18,302 nucleotides of DNA from Candidatus Sumerlaeales bacterium. GTDB lineage: Bacteria; Sumerlaeota; Sumerlaeia; Sumerlaeales; Sumerlaeaceae. Below are positions 1,960-11,607 of this stretch, in pieces; positions within the stretch are counted from its first letter, which is position 1, and each line of letters starts with the position of its first letter. A program made the translations under genes and the position numbers. The notes under the pieces were generated by a model. That model saw only the letters and a program-made list of their open reading frames with translations, searched no databases and was not told the origin of the DNA. The stretch lies in the NCBI GenBank assembly GCA_038243585.1, contig JBBSQY010000060.1, positions 1-18,302 of the forward strand, in the 5' to 3' direction.

Positions 1960-4758
1960 TTAAACTAAAGCCACCGATCCGGGCTTTGAGTCTCCCAGAT
2001 CAATCAAAATAGCGCGACAGTCATGCTGATCCAGCGTTCGGAAATCACCAATTCCCTGGGCGCGAATCAATGTGCCGAAAGAATAATCCGCTTCGGGGAT
2101 TTCCAGATCATTGCGAGGCTCATCCACTATAACAATGAAGATGCCGTTGTTCGCGCCGCCCTTATGAAGCTGGCCCGTGCTGTGCAGATAGCGCGGGCCT
2201 ATGCCAACCGTAACGGCGCACCCGGTCGAATCCCGTAAAGCCGCAGCTGCCCGGTCCAGCGACTTGCGCATTGCGTCTGAAGGGGTCGCAAATGACAAAA
2301 TCGCAATGTAATCCCCGTCCGAAGCCGTCGAGATCAGTGCCTGCACCGCTTGCTTGACTGATTTGCTTTTTACGCCCGCTTTTCCGGCAGCGGTACTAAA
2401 GGACACTGCAACGCCATTTTCTGAAAACGCCGCCTCCGGCGCCGGCAGTTCGCCCTGGTCCTGATATTCGTCAAGCAGAGTATTAGTGTTGGCCTTGGCC
2501 TCGCTGACATTTGGCTCATCAAACGGATTTATCTTTAACAGGGCCCCGGTGACGGCTGTCGCTATTTCCCATCGCATGAATTCCGCGCCCAGATCGTACA
2601 CATCGTTAACCCGGATTCGGACAACGGGATGCCCCGCCTCCTGCAGAGCGTCGAGCCGGTCCTTCACGCCCTGATCTCCTTCAAACTCTATTCCGACGAA
2701 CAGGCGGTCCTTACCATATTTGCGCGGCGCGGCGGGTTTTTCTCCGGTAACGGGTAATATGCCTTTTCCCTGTTTCCCGGTGCTTTCCGCAATCAGTTGT
2801 TCAATCCACGCGCCCAACGGTGCCAGGCGATCTGATGCAACAAATGTGACCTTGTCGCGGCCTTCCTGCGCAAGAGTGCCCAGCACGGCTCCCAGCCTCA
2901 CCGACGGCTCATGTTGGACAAGAACCAGGGTGGCCAGATCCGCAGTAAAGGCAACGGCGCGCCGAAGAACTTTCTCGACATCGATTCCGATAAGCGCCAT
3001 CGGAACAAGCCCAAACATGGAAAGAGCGCTATACCTGCCGCCAATGTCAGGTGGATTAATAAATACGGCACGGAAGCCTTTTTCGCGGGCAAGGCTTTCA
3101 AGGCTGGTTCCTGGATCGGTGATTGCGATGAAATGGGCTCCCGGCGCCTTGCTGCCCGCGCTTTCGAGCTCCTGGCAAAAATACTTATACAGGCTCATGG
3201 TTTCGAGCGTGCCACCGGACTTACTGGCGACGATAAACCATGTTTTCCCGAGGTCCATGCGCTTGCGAGCAGCGCGAATGGCATCGGGCGAAGTTGTATC
3301 CAGAACAACCAGTTGCGGGAAGCCCGCCTGGTTGCCAAAAACCTTTTCGCATACCTCCGGACACAGGCTGCTGCCGCCCATACCCAACAATACGACATGA
3401 GCGATCTTCTCACGCCGCGCGGCGTCGGCTACCTTACGAATTTCTGTCAGGCGCCCTAGCATGTCCTGCGGAACATCCAGCCAACCCAATCGATTGCTGA
3501 TCTCTTTAAACAGGCTCTTGTCTTCAGAAAAAAGCGACGGATCCTTAGCGGCAAGTCGCCGCGCGTAACGGGCTTCGCTCATACTCTCCATGACGGCTTT
3601 AACGGATTTTTCGTGATCTCCAAGAGCTTCTGTTTGCGTGTCTGCCCAGCCCAGATGCGCCAGTCGCTTCTCAGAAATGCTGGCCAGCAACTTGTCAAAC
3701 GGCGCATTGAATTTGCCGACGCCCTCTTCCACCAGCTGCGTCGTAACAGCGTTTAGGTCGATACCCACCGCCGCCAGGTCATCCAGAATCTGGCGTTCCT
3801 GTTCCAGGTTCGTTTCAAGAGTTGCCTCTGTCACCTCACCCCTGGCGCGCCAAGCATTGATGGTAGGCATTGGCATGGTGTTAACGGTGTCGCTGCCGAT
3901 AAGCGGCGCAACGTAAACCAGTTCGTCATAGAGTGGATTCTTGCTGCTTGTGCTGGCCCACAAAGGGCGCTGCACCCGTGCTCCGGCTTTTTTAAGGGCC
4001 TCCCAGCGTCCGCCTGCAAACACCTCCTTAAAATCCTGATACGCCATTTTTCCCGAAGCCAGCGCTACCTGTCCCAAAAGTGCGTGCGCTTTTGAATCAA
4101 CGCGCGCGCTGATCAGCTTGTCCACCTGCACGTCAATTCGACTGATGAAAAAGCTGGCGACGGATGCGACATTGTCTATCGGCTCTTTTGCCTTTTTCCG
4201 ATCTTCCAGACCGGAAAGATAAGCTTCCATGACGTCCCTGTATGCATTGCGGGAAAAGATTAACGTCACGTTTACGTTAATGCCGTCGGCGATAAGCTTC
4301 CTGATAACGGGAATGCCTTCCGGAGTCGCAGGCACCTTTATCATGACGTTAGGCTTGTTGACGGCCTCCCAAAGGCGATGCGCTTCCACCAGGGTACCGT
4401 CTGTATCGAAAGCCAGGTACGGAGAAACCTCCAGGCTGATGTATCCGTCGACGCCATTCGAGTCGTCATACACGGGGCGCAGAACATCGGCGGCCTTGCG
4501 AATATCCTCAACAGCGATCGCTTCGTAAATGGACTCGGCGTCTTTGCCCGCCATGGCCAGTTTCTTTAGCTGCGCGTCATAAAGATCGCTGCCGGAAATG
4601 GCTTTTTGAAAAATGTCTGGATTTGAAGTGACGCCACGAAGACCATCTTCCTTTATCATGCGGCGCAGGGTGCCATCCTGAATCATGGAACGGCTGATGG
4701 TGTCCATCCAGAAGCTTTGCCCAAATTCCAATAATTGCCTGAGACTGTTATTTTTCAT
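1960..4758 (-). CDS. Bifunctional transaldolase / phosphoglucose isomerase (Tal-Pgi fusion)
   Basis: N-terminal ~365 aa is transaldolase-like ([22 protein letters not shown] with the Schiff-base Lys, [15 protein letters not shown]). The C-terminal part is a PGI/SIS domain ([56 protein letters not shown]). Confidence 0.93.
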
Positions 4759-6433: not shown

Positions 6434-7270
6434 TTAACGTTCCAACCCATATCGAATCCGAATCTTTCGTTCCAACGTTCCAAAGACCAAGCCATCCACA
6501 ACCAGCCCGATGACCAGAATTGAAATAATTGCCGCCAGCATCAGCGCCACGTCATTAAGGCTGCGCCCCGTTTCGAGCAGGCGCCCGACCCCAAACACAT
6601 CCTGTCGGATAAGCTCCGCCGCCATAAGGCTGCGCCACGCGAACGTCCAGCCAAGTTTCAGTCCTCCGATCAATTCCGGTAGCGCCGCAAAAAATAAAAT
6701 ATCCTTTGCGAACACATATCCTCGCGCGCCCATCACCCGCCCCACCTTCAGGTAAATAGGTGGCACGTTGCGAATCGCCCCCTCTGTCGCAACGGCAATA
6801 CTGAACAAGGCTCCAAGAATAAGCACCGCCAAGATCGCACCCTCGCCCAGTCCAAACCATATCAACGCCAGCGGCAACCATACGATGCTAGGGAGCGACT
6901 GCAGCGAAAGAATCAGTGATCCGACCGTCTCCTTAAAAATCCAGCTCCGAGCCGCCAGCACCCCAATCGTCAAACCGCCCACGACGCTGACTCCATACCC
7001 CAAAAACATGCGCTTCATACTTAGTCCAATGCTATGGAGTAACTCGCCCGACCTCGCAAGCTCCACCAGTTTACCTAGTACTGCGCCCGGTCCAGGAAAC
7101 AGATAAGGCGGCACCAGTCGCAGCAAATATACCCCCTGCCATATCCCGATCAACAGTACAAAAAAGATAAGTTTGGCAACGATCCGTTTCCACCGTGCCG
7201 GTCGCTGGTCCGAAAACATCTGCGACATTCTGGAATTTGACTTACTGGAACTTAATTTAGCTGAGTTCAT
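6434..7270 (-). CDS. ssuC: ABC transporter permease, SsuC/TauC/NitT family
   Basis: Multiple hydrophobic helices; LQSLPSIVWLPLALIWFG and AWRSLMAAE motifs; ATGA overlap (7267-7270) with the upstream binding-protein gene. Confidence 0.88.
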   Translation of the reverse strand: MNSAKLSSSKSNSRMSQMFSDQRPARWKRIVAKLIFFVLLIGIWQGVYLLRLVPPYLFPGPGAVLGKLVELARSGELLHSIGLSMKRMFLGYGVSVVGGLTIGVLAARSWIFKETVGSLILSLQSLPSIVWLPLALIWFGLGEGAILAVLILGALFSIAVATEGAIRNVPPIYLKVGRVMGARGYVFAKDILFFAALPELIGGLKLGWTFAWRSLMAAELIRQDVFGVGRLLETGRSLNDVALMLAAIISILVIGLVVDGLVFGTLERKIRIRYGLER

Positions 7271-8358
7271 TGTTCCAACCCCGCGCTTGTTTCGGATGTC
7301 GAGGTAGAAATCTCATCAATTAACTGACCTTGAGAGACTCCCTGTGCAGCGTCTAGTTTTGCCAGCGCCCTGTCCAGCGGGCCGCTTACAAATAACGTTG
7401 CGGTATCAAGTTGATCTGCTTTTATAATGCCCACTTCTTTACCCATCTTAAAAAATCGTTCGAATGACCTAATCGCCGGATCGATGTCAAACCCTGTCCG
7501 CTGCAGAGCTCCCGTCACAACCTCAATAGGTAGTGACTTGGTCGTAATGCGTTTTAACTCATCATTTATCGTTACGGCAAAACGCTGGGGGTCGTGCTGC
7601 AACTCGCGCGTCAGGCGGATATGTGCCTCCAGGAATCGCTGCACAAGTGCAGGATGTTTCTCAACGAACGCGCGCCTGGCAATTACGCTCGTGTTCGCAA
7701 AAGCCCCCTCCGGCCAGAGATCCTTTTCTTCCGCAACTAACAAAACCAAGTCCTTATGCAGCAATCGCGATCCCCACGGTTCCGGGACCCACGCAGCATC
7801 GATCTGGTTCTTTGCAAAGAGAGTTTCAATGTCCGGGTTCGGTATAGGAATAAGATCGGTCTCACCACCCTTAGAGGAAAGGGTTGCTCCAAGATCGTGC
7901 GTCAGGTAATATCGGGCTGAGATATCCTGCGTATTGGCGTATTGCGGAGTTGCAACCCGGCCTCCTTTTAACTGCTGCAGTTTCGCAATTCCCCGCTTCT
8001 TATTCCCCACCACCATTACGCCGTTTATAGCAGAACCGGCAATTACGCGAACCTCTTCCCCTTTGCTTTGAATAAAGCCATTTAAAATAGGCGAAGGCCC
8101 TACGTAGGCGATATCAACATGTCCGGCATAAACAGCTTCGATCACTGCAGGACCGGCGTTAAACGTCTGGCCAGTAACTTTTACTTCAGGTCCGACGCTC
8201 TTTTGAAAATCTCCTCGTTGCATCCCAATCAGAGCCTGTGCATGAGTAACATTCGGAAAATACCCGACTCGCATCTCAACCGGTTCACCATTAACACCAA
8301 TTTTCGGCTCGCTGGCGCAACCGCAAAAAATAATGGATAAAGAAAGCAGGATAGGCAT
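7267..8358 (-). CDS. ssuA: ABC transporter substrate-binding lipoprotein, SsuA/NitT/TauT family
   Basis: GYFPNVTHAQAL, FNAGP, YVGPSP, TQDI, AAWVPEPW; lipobox-like IIFCGC. Start uncertain: the ORF is open to 8484, but that overlaps the ATPase tail, so ATG 8358 was chosen as it precedes the hydrophobic signal region. Confidence 0.85.
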   Translation of the reverse strand: MPILLSLSIIFCGCASEPKIGVNGEPVEMRVGYFPNVTHAQALIGMQRGDFQKSVGPEVKVTGQTFNAGPAVIEAVYAGHVDIAYVGPSPILNGFIQSKGEEVRVIAGSAINGVMVVGNKKRGIAKLQQLKGGRVATPQYANTQDISARYYLTHDLGATLSSKGGETDLIPIPNPDIETLFAKNQIDAAWVPEPWGSRLLHKDLVLLVAEEKDLWPEGAFANTSVIARRAFVEKHPALVQRFLEAHIRLTRELQHDPQRFAVTINDELKRITTKSLPIEVVTGALQRTGFDIDPAIRSFERFFKMGKEVGIIKADQLDTATLFVSGPLDRALAKLDAAQGVSQGQLIDEISTSTSETSAGLEQ

Positions 8359-8446
8359 TCCTGCCTGTCGAGCGATTTTCTTAAACAGGAGCGGGAACGC
8401 GAGTGCGACGGGAGTGTAAGTGCCAGGAATGCCGGGACTACGCCCG

Positions 8447-9298
8447 TTAGATACCGCCGGCATAATCGCTAACATCCGCCGCAACAGTAGAAGCTTCCGG
8501 CTCCCAATCCGGATCCAACTCCCGCGCCGCCACCTTGTCCACCTCAGACTTTATCAGCTCGTGAAGCTGCGCCGTAAATCCACTAATCTCGGTAGAAGAC
8601 TTGCTCCTCGGGTGCGGAAAGGGAACAGAAACAATTTTCTTAATACTCCCCGGTGCCGCAGTCATGATCATTACCCGGTCCGCCAGATAAACAGCTTCGC
8701 GCAGGTTGTGCGTTACGAAAAGCACGGTCTTTCCCGTCTCCTGCCAAATTCGCTGCAATTCATCATGCAAAAGATCCCGCGTTTGTGCGTCCAAGGCACT
8801 AAATGGCTCATCCATCAGCAATACCTTGGGTTCAAGCGCCAGAGCCCGGGCAATGCTGACCCGCTGCCGCATCCCGCCGCTCAATTCATGAGGCATGGCC
8901 ATGGCATATTTTGAAAGATGCACCATTTTAAGATATTTGTCAGCCCGTTCGCGTCTTACTTCTTTCGGCAGGCCCTGTAGCTTCAGCCCATACTCTATGT
9001 TGCTTTGCACGTTCATCCACGGCATAAGTCCTGCCTCTTGAAATACTACCACGCGATCAGGTCCCGGCTCGTAAACCATCTGGTCTTCCAGCGTCACGTG
9101 CCCGGTGGTTGGAGTTTCCAAGCCCGCCAGAATATTGAGCAGCGTACTTTTACCGCAACCGGAGGGTCCGATGATACAGAAAAACTCCCCCTCCTTTATA
9201 TCCAGACGGACAGGGTTTAGCGCCTGCGTCCGCCGTCCGTTAGCTCCGTTGGCAGCCCGCGCGAATGATTTGCTCACATCATGAAAATGGATTGTCAT
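8447..9298 (-). CDS. ssuB: ABC transporter ATP-binding subunit, SsuB/TauB/NrtD family, with acidic C-terminal tail
   Basis: Walker A GPSGCGKS, Q-loop VFQE, signature LSGGMRQR, Walker B LLMDEPFSALD, H-loop VTH. Confidence 0.93.
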   Translation of the reverse strand: MTIHFHDVSKSFARAANGANGRRTQALNPVRLDIKEGEFFCIIGPSGCGKSTLLNILAGLETPTTGHVTLEDQMVYEPGPDRVVVFQEAGLMPWMNVQSNIEYGLKLQGLPKEVRRERADKYLKMVHLSKYAMAMPHELSGGMRQRVSIARALALEPKVLLMDEPFSALDAQTRDLLHDELQRIWQETGKTVLFVTHNLREAVYLADRVMIMTAAPGSIKKIVSVPFPHPRSKSSTEISGFTAQLHELIKSEVDKVAARELDPDWEPEASTVAADVSDYAGGI

Positions 9299-9339
9299 AG
9301 TAATACTTTCGGAAACGCAAAAGCAAAAAATTACTGCGC

Positions 9340-9369
9340 TGTGAGACAGGTAAGTGTGAAACAGGTAAG
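9340..9369. repeat. Tandem 15-bp direct repeat upstream of the ABC ATPase gene
   Basis: TGTGAGACAGGTAAG (9340-9354) and TGTGAAACAGGTAAG (9355-9369), 14/15 identical. Confidence 0.8.
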
Positions 9370-9398
9370 GAAGTTCAATACAGTAAAAGAGGCGCGAC

Positions 9399-9413
9399 GC
9401 CTATTCTACTTCT
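9399..9413. repeat. Left arm of inverted repeat bracketing cysK
   Basis: GCCTATTCTACTTCT; its reverse complement matches 10415-10429 at 14/15 positions. Confidence 0.7.
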
Positions 9414-9425
9414 ATCAGCGTCTGA

Positions 9426-10397
9426 TCAGTTCTTTATAAGATCGGAGACGTCATCGCTTTCGGAGCTTATGTCTTCATACAGCCATGTGCTGAGGTAACG
9501 TTCTGCGGAGGACGGTATAATGACTACGATGGTTTTGCCCTCATTTTCCGGACGTTTGGCTACTTGGCAAGCAGCCCAGATGGCGGAGCCGCTGCTGATT
9601 CCCACAGGAAGCCCCTCTTCGCTGCAGGCGCGCTTCGCATAAGTTGAGGAGTCTTCTTCGTTCACCAAAATTGTCTCATCAATCATGCTGACGTCAAGCG
9701 TGCCTGGAATAAATCCAGCTCCAAGCCCTTGCAGGCGGTGCTTGCCCGGCTCGCCCCCGGAGATGACAGGCGACCCCGCTGGCTCAAGTGCAATAGCCTT
9801 AAACGACGGCTTAAGAGGCTTGATATACGCGGAAACGCCGCTGATGGTTCCGCCAGTGCCAACGCCGCTGATTAAAATATCAACCGCGCCATCGGTATCT
9901 TCCCAGATTTCCGGCCCTGTAGTCGCCTGGTGGATTGCCGGATTAGCGGGACTTTCAAACTGCTGTGCGATAACGGCGCCTGGAATCTGTTTCTGAAGCT
10001 CTTCCGACCGTGCGATAGCACCTTTCATCCCTTTGGAACCATCTGTCAAAACAAGCCGTGCACCGAGGATCTTGAGAAGTTTCTTACGCTCCGTGCTGGC
10101 TGTCTCTGGCATGGTTATAATCAAAGTATAACCTTTCGCAGCAGCCACAAATGCCAGTGCGATTCCAGTGTTGCCACTGGTCGCTTCAATAAGAGTTGTT
10201 TTACCTGGTTCAATCCCCTTAGTCTTTTCCAGGTGTTCGATCATTGCAAGCCCGATGCGATCTTTCACGCTTCCCAGCGGGTTAAAAAACTCAAGTTTCA
10301 GAAGCACCGTAGCCTTGGCGCCGTCCGTAATCCGGTTTAACTTAACTAGCGGAGTACGACCAATCGTCTCCAGAATGTTGTTATAAATTTTTGCCAT
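9426..10397 (-). CDS. cysK: Cysteine synthase A (O-acetylserine sulfhydrylase)
   Basis: IGRTPLVKL, NPLGSVKDRIG (PLP lysine), EATSGNTGIALA, GVGTGGT, QGLGAGFIP, GISSG, ERYLST; GGGAG ribosome-binding site 6 nt upstream. Confidence 0.96.
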   Translation of the reverse strand: MAKIYNNILETIGRTPLVKLNRITDGAKATVLLKLEFFNPLGSVKDRIGLAMIEHLEKTKGIEPGKTTLIEATSGNTGIALAFVAAAKGYTLIITMPETASTERKKLLKILGARLVLTDGSKGMKGAIARSEELQKQIPGAVIAQQFESPANPAIHQATTGPEIWEDTDGAVDILISGVGTGGTISGVSAYIKPLKPSFKAIALEPAGSPVISGGEPGKHRLQGLGAGFIPGTLDVSMIDETILVNEEDSSTYAKRACSEEGLPVGISSGSAIWAACQVAKRPENEGKTIVVIIPSSAERYLSTWLYEDISSESDDVSDLIKN

Positions 10398-10414: not shown

Positions 10415-10429
10415 AGAAGTAGAACAGGC
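10415..10429. repeat. Right arm of inverted repeat bracketing cysK
   Basis: AGAAGTAGAACAGGC in the cysK 5' intergenic region; also overlaps a local hairpin ACAGGC-attcc-GCCTGT (10424-10440). Confidence 0.7.
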
Positions 10430-10460
10430 ATTCCGCCTGTATCTCTATTACTCTACTACG

Positions 10461-10895
10461 TTATATGTACCACATCAGCGCTTCTATATCCTGCTCGCTA
10501 AGCGCCTCATCAGCCATCTCCTGCAATGATACCGTCTCTAGCTTGTTGCGCACATAAATGCGGATGTCTTCCATTAAAACAAGGACGCCGGAAGGCGCCA
10601 TATTTTCAGCCGAGCCTATCCCCGACCGATCATGAGACATAGGCTCTTCCACCGCCGAAAGTATTCTTCCCACTGAGACAAGCTTTGGATTGCCCGACAG
10701 CTCGTATCCACCCTTTGGCCCAGCCTTGCTTTTCACCAGTCCGGCTGATTTTAACGCTAGCAGAATCTGCTCTAGAAATTTTTTCGGCAAATCCTGAGAG
10801 GTAGCCACCTGCGTAATCGTCATGGCCGACTCACTGTTGCGAGCCAGCGCGATCATCGCACGCAAAGCATACTCTCCTTTTTTGCTCAATCTCAT
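10461..10895 (-). CDS. cymR: Rrf2-family transcriptional regulator, CymR-like (no cysteines)
   Basis: MRLSKKGEYALRAM..FLEQIL..GLVKSKAGPKGGYEL winged-helix pattern; no Fe-S-ligating Cys; C-terminal MWYI like CymR MFYI; directly upstream of cysK. The symbol is inferred from these features. Confidence 0.8.
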   Translation of the reverse strand: MRLSKKGEYALRAMIALARNSESAMTITQVATSQDLPKKFLEQILLALKSAGLVKSKAGPKGGYELSGNPKLVSVGRILSAVEEPMSHDRSGIGSAENMAPSGVLVLMEDIRIYVRNKLETVSLQEMADEALSEQDIEALMWYI

Positions 10896-11166: not shown

Positions 11167-11607
11167 TTAAGTGTCATACTCTCCGCTATCGAAAGGCTCA
11201 GGAAACGCCATGTAATTTCCAGGCTCAAAATGCGCCCACCACGGATCATCATCGGTCTCACCTGGCCGAAGAATAAGCCCGAAAACAAGCCCAAACTGTT
11301 CAACCTGGAACGGTTGGATTTTAATGGTCTCGATGCTGATCTTACCCAGCAGGGAAAGAAATTTCGTCGGATATGCCTTTGCACTTTCTGCCGCTGCGTG
11401 GCAGTTAAGGCCAAGGTCTTCTATTTGAGAACTTACCAGCGCCCCTGCGGCGTCGAAAATGTACAGAGCAGCAAACTCCCGACCGCTTTCTTCACGGCTA
11501 GCAGCCACAAAGGGAGTCGTCAGGAAAAACTGGCGACCATCCAGAGTGCGACCGACATTCTCGGCATGGTACTCATCAGGTGTAATAGTAACCAGAATAG
11601 ATGACAT
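11167..11607 (-). CDS. Hypothetical protein (146 aa, ends PFDSGEYDT)
   Basis: Begins 12 nt after the gatB stop on the same strand; composition looks like a globular protein, unlike the overlapping alternative ORFs. Confidence 0.75.
   Translation of the reverse strand: MSSILVTITPDEYHAENVGRTLDGRQFFLTTPFVAASREESGREFAALYIFDAAGALVSSQIEDLGLNCHAAAESAKAYPTKFLSLLGKISIETIKIQPFQVEQFGLVFGLILRPGETDDDPWWAHFEPGNYMAFPEPFDSGEYDT

Follow-up and report, generated by a model that had tools for sequence, protein, structure and literature searches.

The bacterial O-acetylserine sulfhydrylase CysK has a small set of described clients that dock on it through a C-terminal peptide ending in isoleucine, namely the enzyme CysE, the repressor CymR and the toxin CdiA-CT, and this docking serves to sense O-acetylserine (OAS); the CymR-CysK pair, for instance, represses when OAS is low. 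The subject of this report is a stretch of 18,302 nucleotides (the window) from Candidatus Sumerlaeales bacterium, of the phylum Sumerlaeota (contig JBBSQY010000060.1, assembly GCA_038243585.1), in which the ATP-binding subunit of a NitT/TauT-type ATP-binding cassette (ABC) importer is encoded next to cysK and ends in a tail that resembles those of the known clients. Our reading is that this tail plugs into the active site of CysK and that the OAS status of the cell thereby gates uptake by the importer; we give it a probability of about 0.6, and the binding step taken by itself appears slightly more probable. The docking principle is known, whereas a client of this kind and its consequence would be new, both being putative. 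A preliminary description of this DNA knew of no bacterial ABC ATPase bound by CysK; in agreement with it, none was found in the full-text literature, the coverage of which does not extend to a 2015 review of CysK moonlighting (Campanini et al.).

In the CysE-CysK complex of E. coli, Salmonella and H. influenzae the client likewise carries a flexible tail that ends in isoleucine, and the G-x-G-I end of the ATPase matches the enterobacterial GDGI, which is given as the anchor conserved in the CysE of E. coli and its relatives in the available part of one report (bioRxiv 10.1101/2025.03.26.645513). The carboxylate of the isoleucine is held in that complex by a Thr/Asn loop and a glutamine, residues that are kept in the CysK of the window. 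The two cases differ in that the candidate carrier here is the ATPase of an ABC transporter instead of an enzyme of the pathway, and in that many relatives with a tailed ATPase have a CysE without a terminal isoleucine. With the CymR-CysK pair of Bacillus subtilis and Staphylococcus aureus, the locus has in common an Rrf2-family regulator that adjoins cysK and has an aromatic-Tyr-Ile end (MWYI versus YMFYI in S. aureus); the proposed logic is also the same, i.e., the occupancy of CysK would report low OAS. The accessible text of a study on S. aureus states that the CymR decapeptide EDLDGYMFYI binds CysK with a dissociation constant of 25 nM, and describes co-crystal structures of CysK with peptides (bioRxiv 10.1101/2024.09.19.614015). 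The window differs from these systems in its phylum, in its regulator, which scored 83.2 bits with the NCBIfam model for CymR (NF047409, cut-off 195), and in the transporter subunit, which would be new as a second client. CdiA-CT of E. coli UPEC536 is also an unrelated protein with an acquired CysK-binding isoleucine at its C-terminus, and this residue is essential for the binding according to the source as far as available (PMC4961446), which implies that the docking site of CysK is open to co-option by new clients. The toxin, however, acts between bacteria and uses CysK as an activator, whereas the candidate client of the window is a housekeeping importer of the same cell, whose uptake is presumed to be controlled.

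The closest functional precedent for a cysteine synthase that gates sulfur uptake comes from Arabidopsis, where the cytosolic cysteine synthase (OASTL) binds the STAS domain of the transporter SULTR1;2 and transport is lowered, as told in the available part of a review that cites Shibagaki and Grossman 2010 (PMC4158793). In contrast with the importer of the window, SULTR1;2 is a eukaryotic secondary transporter of the SLC26 type, the contact is made by the folded STAS domain, and, in that part of the review, no C-terminal isoleucine peptide is apparently involved. A further precedent is the PII protein of cyanobacteria, which binds the ATPase subunit of the nitrate ABC transporter NrtABCD and locks it in an inhibited state in a metabolite-responsive manner, according to the accessible portion of its source (PMC10945777). 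The importer and the nitrate transporter are both members of one broad ABC family, ntrCD being among the top NCBIfam matches of the ATPase; nevertheless, PII reads 2-oxoglutarate, binds the large C-terminal regulatory domain of NrtC, and serves nitrogen and not sulfur metabolism.

In the mechanism that we propose, the docking peptide would be formed by the last residues, D-Y-A-G-G-I-COOH, of a flexible ATPase tail of about 23 residues. The terminal isoleucine with its free carboxylate would enter the active site of CysK and compete with OAS, as the peptides of CysE and CymR do. In sulfur-replete cells, where OAS is low, CysK would occupy the tails of both ATPase subunits and hold back the transport cycle, and it would also be bound to the MWYI regulator encoded nearby; under sulfur shortage, the OAS that builds up would displace the tails, so that the transporter is freed and the genes are derepressed. 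Inhibition of transport by the bound CysK appears appreciably likelier than activation, by analogy with CymR-CysK, with the contact between plant SULTR1;2 and cysteine synthase, and with PII on NrtBCD.

Binding of the tail to CysK could also occur without gating, either by bringing the enzyme to the membrane, where imported sulfur would be used locally, or by titrating or inhibiting CysK as CysE does. The comparative evidence for docking would fit these possibilities equally well, and the plant cysteine synthase on the STAS domain of SULTR1;2 gains activity while transport drops, so that effects in both directions are known (PMC4158793, in its available part). However, in the sources as far as accessible, CysK is inhibited by a client peptide that fills its active site in competition with OAS, which speaks against channelling through a subunit occupied in this way; moreover, a transporter ATPase, being probably far scarcer than CysK, would make a poor titrator. 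We consider binding without gating to be quite improbable.

If the tail gates uptake as proposed, sulfur import in bacteria would be under a direct, fast and post-translational control, which would be the sulfur counterpart of the control of nitrate uptake by PII and of the contact between SULTR1;2 and cysteine synthase in plants. The signature D-hydrophobic-[G/A]-x-G-I on ABC ATPases could then mark regulated sulfur importers in uncultured phyla. The subject is also relevant to the design of CysK inhibitors from client peptides.

The C-terminal tail of the ATPase

The ATPase gene extends from position 8447 to 9298 on the minus strand and encodes 283 residues (Pfam ABC_tran, 116.9 bits), the C-terminus of which reads KVAARELDPDWEPEASTVAADVSDYAGGI. 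Its last 24 codons together with the TAA stop (8447–8521, minus strand) translate to ELDPDWEPEASTVAADVSDYAGGI, and the ending in YAGGI followed by a stop, on which the preliminary description relied, is thus exact. That description had also noted an acidic, flexible linker before DYAGGI, and the AlphaFold2 model agrees with it. The model has a mean predicted local distance difference test (pLDDT) score of 90.1, with values above 90 through the ATPase fold; the last helix spans residues 236–260, beyond which secondary structure is absent, and residues 261–283 are in coil, with pLDDT averages by block of 58, 49 and 49. These residues, which the model and the alignment define as a tail predicted to be disordered (LDPDWEPEASTVAADVSDYAGGI; 8447–8518 of the minus strand, including the stop codon), are predicted to lie on a flexible and exposed C-terminal extension.

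Conservation of the terminal isoleucine had been chosen beforehand as the test on which the proposal could fail; the residue was found in all 18 orthologues of the phylum and in 106 of 120 sequences of a wider set, formed by the query and 119 listed homologues (50–93% identity) from a collection of 5.8 billion proteins. In this set, 12 sequences end in leucine and two in another residue, 97 end in Gly-Ile, and the terminal pattern [G/A]-x-[G/D/E/N/A]-[I/L] fits 113. Counted backwards from the C-terminus, the isoleucine (106) is preceded by glycine (108), a variable position occupied by S, E, G or A, glycine or alanine (113), a hydrophobic or aromatic residue (Y 22, I 20, P 19, L 19), and aspartate (62) or asparagine (14), which gives the consensus end D-hydrophobic-[G/A]-x-G-I. 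The terminal motif is separated from a conserved E-x-D-x-D-W stretch by an unconserved linker, of 15–20 residues in most homologues. An alignment of 98 homologues places G282 and I283 among its columns with at least 90% conservation, and G-x-G-I is retained by distant homologues with 50–57% identity; some homologues end in GDGI, identical to the last four residues of E. coli CysE. In the ATPase itself, the Walker A, signature and Walker B motifs (GPSGCGKS, LSGGMRQR and LLMDEP) are invariant or nearly so.

Within the phylum, 75 genomes were searched and 18 had an orthologue (E values of 2.4e-113 or lower, 64–100% identity), the next-best matches being paralogues with E values of 1.7e-72 or worse; about 8 kb on each side were taken for the 18 orthologous and for 37 paralogous loci. 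The orthologues end in -GI (16/18) or -EI (2/18), and none of the 37 paralogous NitT/TauT ATPases, which are 39–49% identical, ends in isoleucine. The tail is therefore specific to this orthologue group within the phylum. In a crude set of open reading frames (ORFs) from the same genome, isoleucine is the last residue of 92 out of 2554 and Gly-Ile the last pair of 14 out of 2554; since these endings are rare across the genome and dominant among the homologues, the tail exceeds what chance would give. Endings of the form Y-A-x-G-I were found in that set only in CysE and in this ATPase. Three other proteins of the genome (C8, C45 and C61) end in E-G-I; they have no link to sulfur and were taken as chance occurrences.

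In a library of representatives at 50% identity, the motif was present in about 10 of the best 150 clusters, mostly at ranks 1–17. A tree was built from 376 family members after removing the last 30 residues; the G-x-G-I state required 11 changes on it, against a mean of 62.6 and a minimum of 55 in 200 shuffles of the labels. The state does not form one clean clade, with 58 of 67 cases inside a clade of 115 members that has a support of 69. This result shows inheritance, not function. A search of 401 genomes from the phylum of another genome of the study (G080, locus L189; Thermodesulfobacteriota), carried out with the family alignment, gave three strong matches, none with the tail, and it carries little weight given that six candidates were scored per genome.

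A conserved end of a gene may also reflect selection on the nucleotides, in which case the last codons would act as a ribosome-binding site or overlap a downstream start in translational coupling, and the peptide would be functionless. The end of several orthologues (GGA GAG/GAA GGA ATH TGA/TAA) is indeed similar to a Shine-Dalgarno sequence, and an overlapping ATGA occurs in some. In the window, the ORF of the downstream binding protein has candidate starts at 8484, 8475, 8463 and 8358, the first three of which fall, in a different frame, within the last 6–13 codons of the ATPase gene; the N-termini of orthologous proteins place the start directly after the ATPase stop. On the contrary, ends of the type seen in the window (GCC GGC GGT ATC TAA, or GCC AGC GGN ATH) are unlike a Shine-Dalgarno sequence; two tailed loci (L038 and L041) have no detected binding-protein gene downstream; and G-x-G-I is kept in homologues as distant as those mentioned above. 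In addition, the isoleucine codon of the 18 orthologues is ATC, ATT or ATA and the preceding glycine uses all four of its codons, and this synonymous variation at constant residues indicates that selection acts on the peptide. An origin of the tail codons in a Shine-Dalgarno sequence or in coupling is thus largely refuted, and we hold it to be very improbable.

The receptor site in CysK, CysE tails and the predicted complex

The proposed receptor of the tail is encoded by cysK, at 9426–10397 of the minus strand (323 residues), which was assigned with TIGR01139 (419.9 bits, cut-off 350.95); CysM models gave 275.8 and 274.3 bits, both under their cut-offs. No second gene of the CysK type was found in the assembly. 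In the accessible text of the S. aureus study, T73, N76, T77 and Q145 of CysK hold the carboxylate of the terminal isoleucine (bioRxiv 10.1101/2024.09.19.614015), and T73, N76, T77 and Q146 of the CysK of the window match these contact residues and are invariant in eight orthologues. The C-terminus of CysK (9426–9476, residues ~308–323) carries an acidic extension that is conserved in the clade, with the sequence W-L-[F/Y]-x-D-I-x-x-E-S-D-D-[V/I]..., and that reaches past the end of the cysK family model.

The preliminary description compared the spacing of YAGGI with that of CysE, and the genome itself bears this out: its sole CysE (TIGR01172, 231.6 bits) ends in STYAEGI, and the ATPase in SDYAGGI. 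The CysE proteins of three close relatives end in FGDGI, DGTGI and TGEGI. Covariation between the tails of the ATPase and of CysE was also considered as a general argument and was abandoned; it holds in the genus of the window and in one further genome (G065), and fails in 11 of the 18 genomes with a tailed ATPase and in four of five outside the phylum.

The complex was predicted with CysK and residues 240–283 of the ATPase, both given as alignments, and with three controls. The score was 0.52, against 0.00 for the best control, one of the controls being an unrelated protein in place of CysK (0.00); the contacts agreed in at least 87% between runs, the pLDDT of the partner was at least 52, and the grade assigned by the tool was 'weak support'. 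In the calibration of this tool, 116 of 157 solved complexes and two of 215 mismatched pairs attained the pass mark; the passes with scores of 0.60 or less include 18 of those solved complexes and both of the mismatched pairs. In the structure prediction, which had been suggested as a check, the pair was set apart from the controls at a weak grade.

Linkage to cysK and the weighing of CysK as the receptor

On the minus strand of the window five genes stand head to tail, in the order Rrf2 regulator, cysK, ATPase, SsuA-like binding protein and permease. The ATPase gene is directly downstream of cysK, separated by 127 nucleotides, and on the other side of cysK lies the gene of the regulator (10461–10895, minus strand; 144 residues; Pfam Rrf2, 102.7 bits), which ends in EALMWYI; both neighbours had been recognized correctly in the preliminary description. 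The regulator exceeds the cut-off of the family model TIGR00738 (102.1 bits, cut-off 73.3), and its score under the cut-off of NF047409 means that it is not a CymR equivalog by that test. On these model scores and its context the gene is CymR-like in position and tail, yet no equivalog.

The ATPase gene directly follows cysK in 10 of the 18 orthologous loci. An 11th locus is probably linked in the same way and split by a contig break, as its genome has the ATPase operon at the end of one contig and Rrf2(MWYI)-cysK, in matching orientation, at the start of another. A Rrf2 regulator ending in MWYI precedes cysK in all eight orthologous loci where the contig extends that far, as well as in locus L309, and in three further orthologous loci another Rrf2 regulator, confirmed with Pfam and ending in GGLGI or GGEGI, is directly upstream of the ATPase gene. 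Altogether, Rrf2 regulators that end in isoleucine flank 11 of the 18 orthologous loci.

Outside the phylum, two background samples were scanned, one from genome contigs and the other from metagenomes, each with 80 arbitrary loci of the family that do not represent the tail clade; 6/80 and 4/80 of their ATPases, respectively (10/160), end in isoleucine. Two of these loci, one from a Chloroflexi metagenome-assembled genome (L136, 3935–7495) and the other from a metagenome contig (L235, 439–3955), are operons with the order Rrf2-binding protein-ATPase-permease. In the former the Rrf2 regulator ends in EMYHI and the ATPase in RYAI, and in the latter the ends are EAYSI and SYAI. Among the 12 background loci with a nearby Rrf2 regulator that lacks a terminal isoleucine, no ATPase ends in this residue.

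Several results weigh against CysK as the receptor. Regarding the peptide, the two orthologues that end in -EI and the 12 of 120 homologues that end in leucine fit the docking site of CysK doubtfully, and the CysE of N. gonorrhoeae ends in isoleucine yet forms no complex with CysK in vitro, in the available part of the source, which means that a terminal isoleucine is insufficient for the complex. CysE lacks a terminal isoleucine in 11 of the 18 genomes with a tailed ATPase (CysE loci L090–L107), so that mimicry of CysE holds only for the genus of the window and a few relatives; those 11 genomes retain the isoleucine tails of the ATPase and, where there is one, of the regulator, and in them docking on CysK, if real, may serve regulation rather than a cysteine synthase complex. 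Regarding linkage, in four of the 18 orthologous loci (L042, L043, L045 and L049) the tail is present and the flank contains no cysK and no Rrf2 gene, one background locus has an Rrf2 regulator ending in GEGI next to an untailed ATPase (L161), and in another cysK adjoins an ATPase without a tail (L132). CysK scores over the cut-off in 67 of the 75 genomes of the phylum, and being nearly universal, its mere presence tests nothing. Regarding the complex, a score of 0.52 falls in a band that the tool rates as more often wrong than right unless the pairing is likely beforehand, and since many solved relatives of CysK exist and co-crystals with peptides have been described, the pass may reflect memory of similar complexes.

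The enrichment of tails in members linked to cysK, which had been suggested as a test, belongs to the same account. For 168 loci, 15 are tailed and linked (cysK/Rrf2), 10 tailed and unlinked, two untailed and linked, and 141 untailed and unlinked, and these counts are dominated by relatives; they leave out locus L039 (at a contig end), unlinked loci that span less than 6 kb, and ORFs whose 3' end is incomplete or whose length is not within 200–400 residues. After phylogenetic correction only three independent pairs stand on supported branches, which leaves the sign test without power and makes linkage inseparable from shared ancestry.

These results are in part those expected if the conserved tail is functional and its receptor is not CysK. 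The tail could be an autoinhibitory latch on the ATPase dimer or on the permease, bind another cytoplasmic partner, or act as a stability signal, and its proximity to cysK would in that case mean no more than membership of one sulfur regulon. The four tailed loci without a nearby cysK or Rrf2 gene agree with this explanation, as do the weak complex prediction and the 11 genomes where a habit of peptide docking is not evident in CysE; besides, the conserved E-x-D-x-D-W before the linker has, to our knowledge, no counterpart in the tails of CysE or CymR. The last six residues, nevertheless, follow the pattern of the CysK anchor (acidic, aromatic or hydrophobic, small, x, Gly, Ile-COOH), with the GDGI of E. 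coli CysE in some homologues, the neighbouring regulators bear isoleucine tails of the CymR type, and the prediction fell to 0.00 when an unrelated protein took the place of CysK. We are not aware of another cytoplasmic protein in sulfur metabolism that serves as a receptor for a free isoleucine C-terminus. On balance, a receptor other than CysK is unlikely, although it is the most serious of the rival explanations. Docking of the tail on CysK, as put forward in the preliminary description, thus agrees with the outcome of all the comparative tests that were run, i.e., conservation, paralogues without the tail, likeness to CysE and gene neighbours, and finds less backing in the predicted complex.

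Genome G039 encodes three Rrf2 regulators that end in isoleucine; those ending in IMYHI and DDYSI flank cysK (L307:3368–5865), and in L072:631–1993 a regulator ending in GGEGI is directly upstream of a tailed ATPase that ends in GEGI.

Two loci of actinobacterial type (L176, 4457–6795, and L269, 4268–6792) contain a sulfite reductase-cysH-cysD-cysN cluster, where a CysN-like GTPase (GTP_EFTU and GTP-eEF1A_C domains) ends in DGYLTI or DGYLSI, and the ABC ATPase encoded by the next gene ends in DGYVSI; a fragment of CysE from the genome of L176 ends in AMYYI. These loci may represent a second and independent set of isoleucine-tailed proteins of sulfur assimilation. The CysN and ATPase tails of L176 and L269, the three Rrf2 regulators of G039, and the operons of L136 and L235 lead to a broader idea, in which CysK would be a general hub of sulfur status at the protein level in many phyla. 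Its active site would read OAS and would hold, through interchangeable isoleucine tails, several Rrf2 regulators per genome, NitT/TauT ATPases and even CysN; uptake, activation and transcription would all be released at once by OAS as a second messenger. We offer this idea tentatively, as it is considerably more apt to be wrong than right.

The importer and other features of the window

The top NCBIfam models for the ATPase were SaoA (253.4 bits, cut-off 360), ntrCD (243.4), TauB (237.9, cut-off 357) and SsuB (181.6, cut-off 395), all of them under their cut-offs. By these scores the protein is a member of the broad NitT/TauT importer family that does not reach the equivalog cut-offs of SsuB, TauB or SaoA. 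The binding protein (7267–8484, minus strand) is a lipoprotein of the SsuA family (NMT1_2, 108 bits; TIGR01728 SsuA_fam, 162.8 bits, cut-off 163.5), and the permease (6434–7270, minus strand; 278 residues) was recognized by BPD_transp_1 (60.6 bits), with models of the SaoP, TauC and SsuC types under their cut-offs. The cargo of the importer is probably a sulfur compound. Neither a sulfite reductase of the NIR_SIR type nor TauD was found in the assembly, which is 89.7% complete, and one luciferase-like monooxygenase was found in it; NIR_SIR is present in all five relatives examined. The gap in NIR_SIR and TauD is either a gap of the assembly or a real loss, and the latter would bear on the sulfur source of the importer.

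The region between cysK and the ATPase gene (9299–9425, minus strand), as read from the sequence, contains a small terminator-like hairpin at 9402–9390 with a run of T, and a tandem repeat of 15 nucleotides at 9340–9369. A stretch of 24 nucleotides in this spacer (9390–9413) is an inverted match, with 83% complementarity, to 10415–10438 in the spacer between the Rrf2 gene and cysK, the common part being AGAAGTAGAA and its complement. The repeat and the inverted match may be operator sites for the Rrf2 regulator.

Between gatB and the Rrf2 gene there is an ORF of 146 residues (11167–11607) with no match in Pfam or NCBIfam. Elsewhere in the window, an ORF of 932 residues on the minus strand (1960–4758) carries a transaldolase domain (277.3 bits) fused with one of phosphoglucose isomerase (56 bits).

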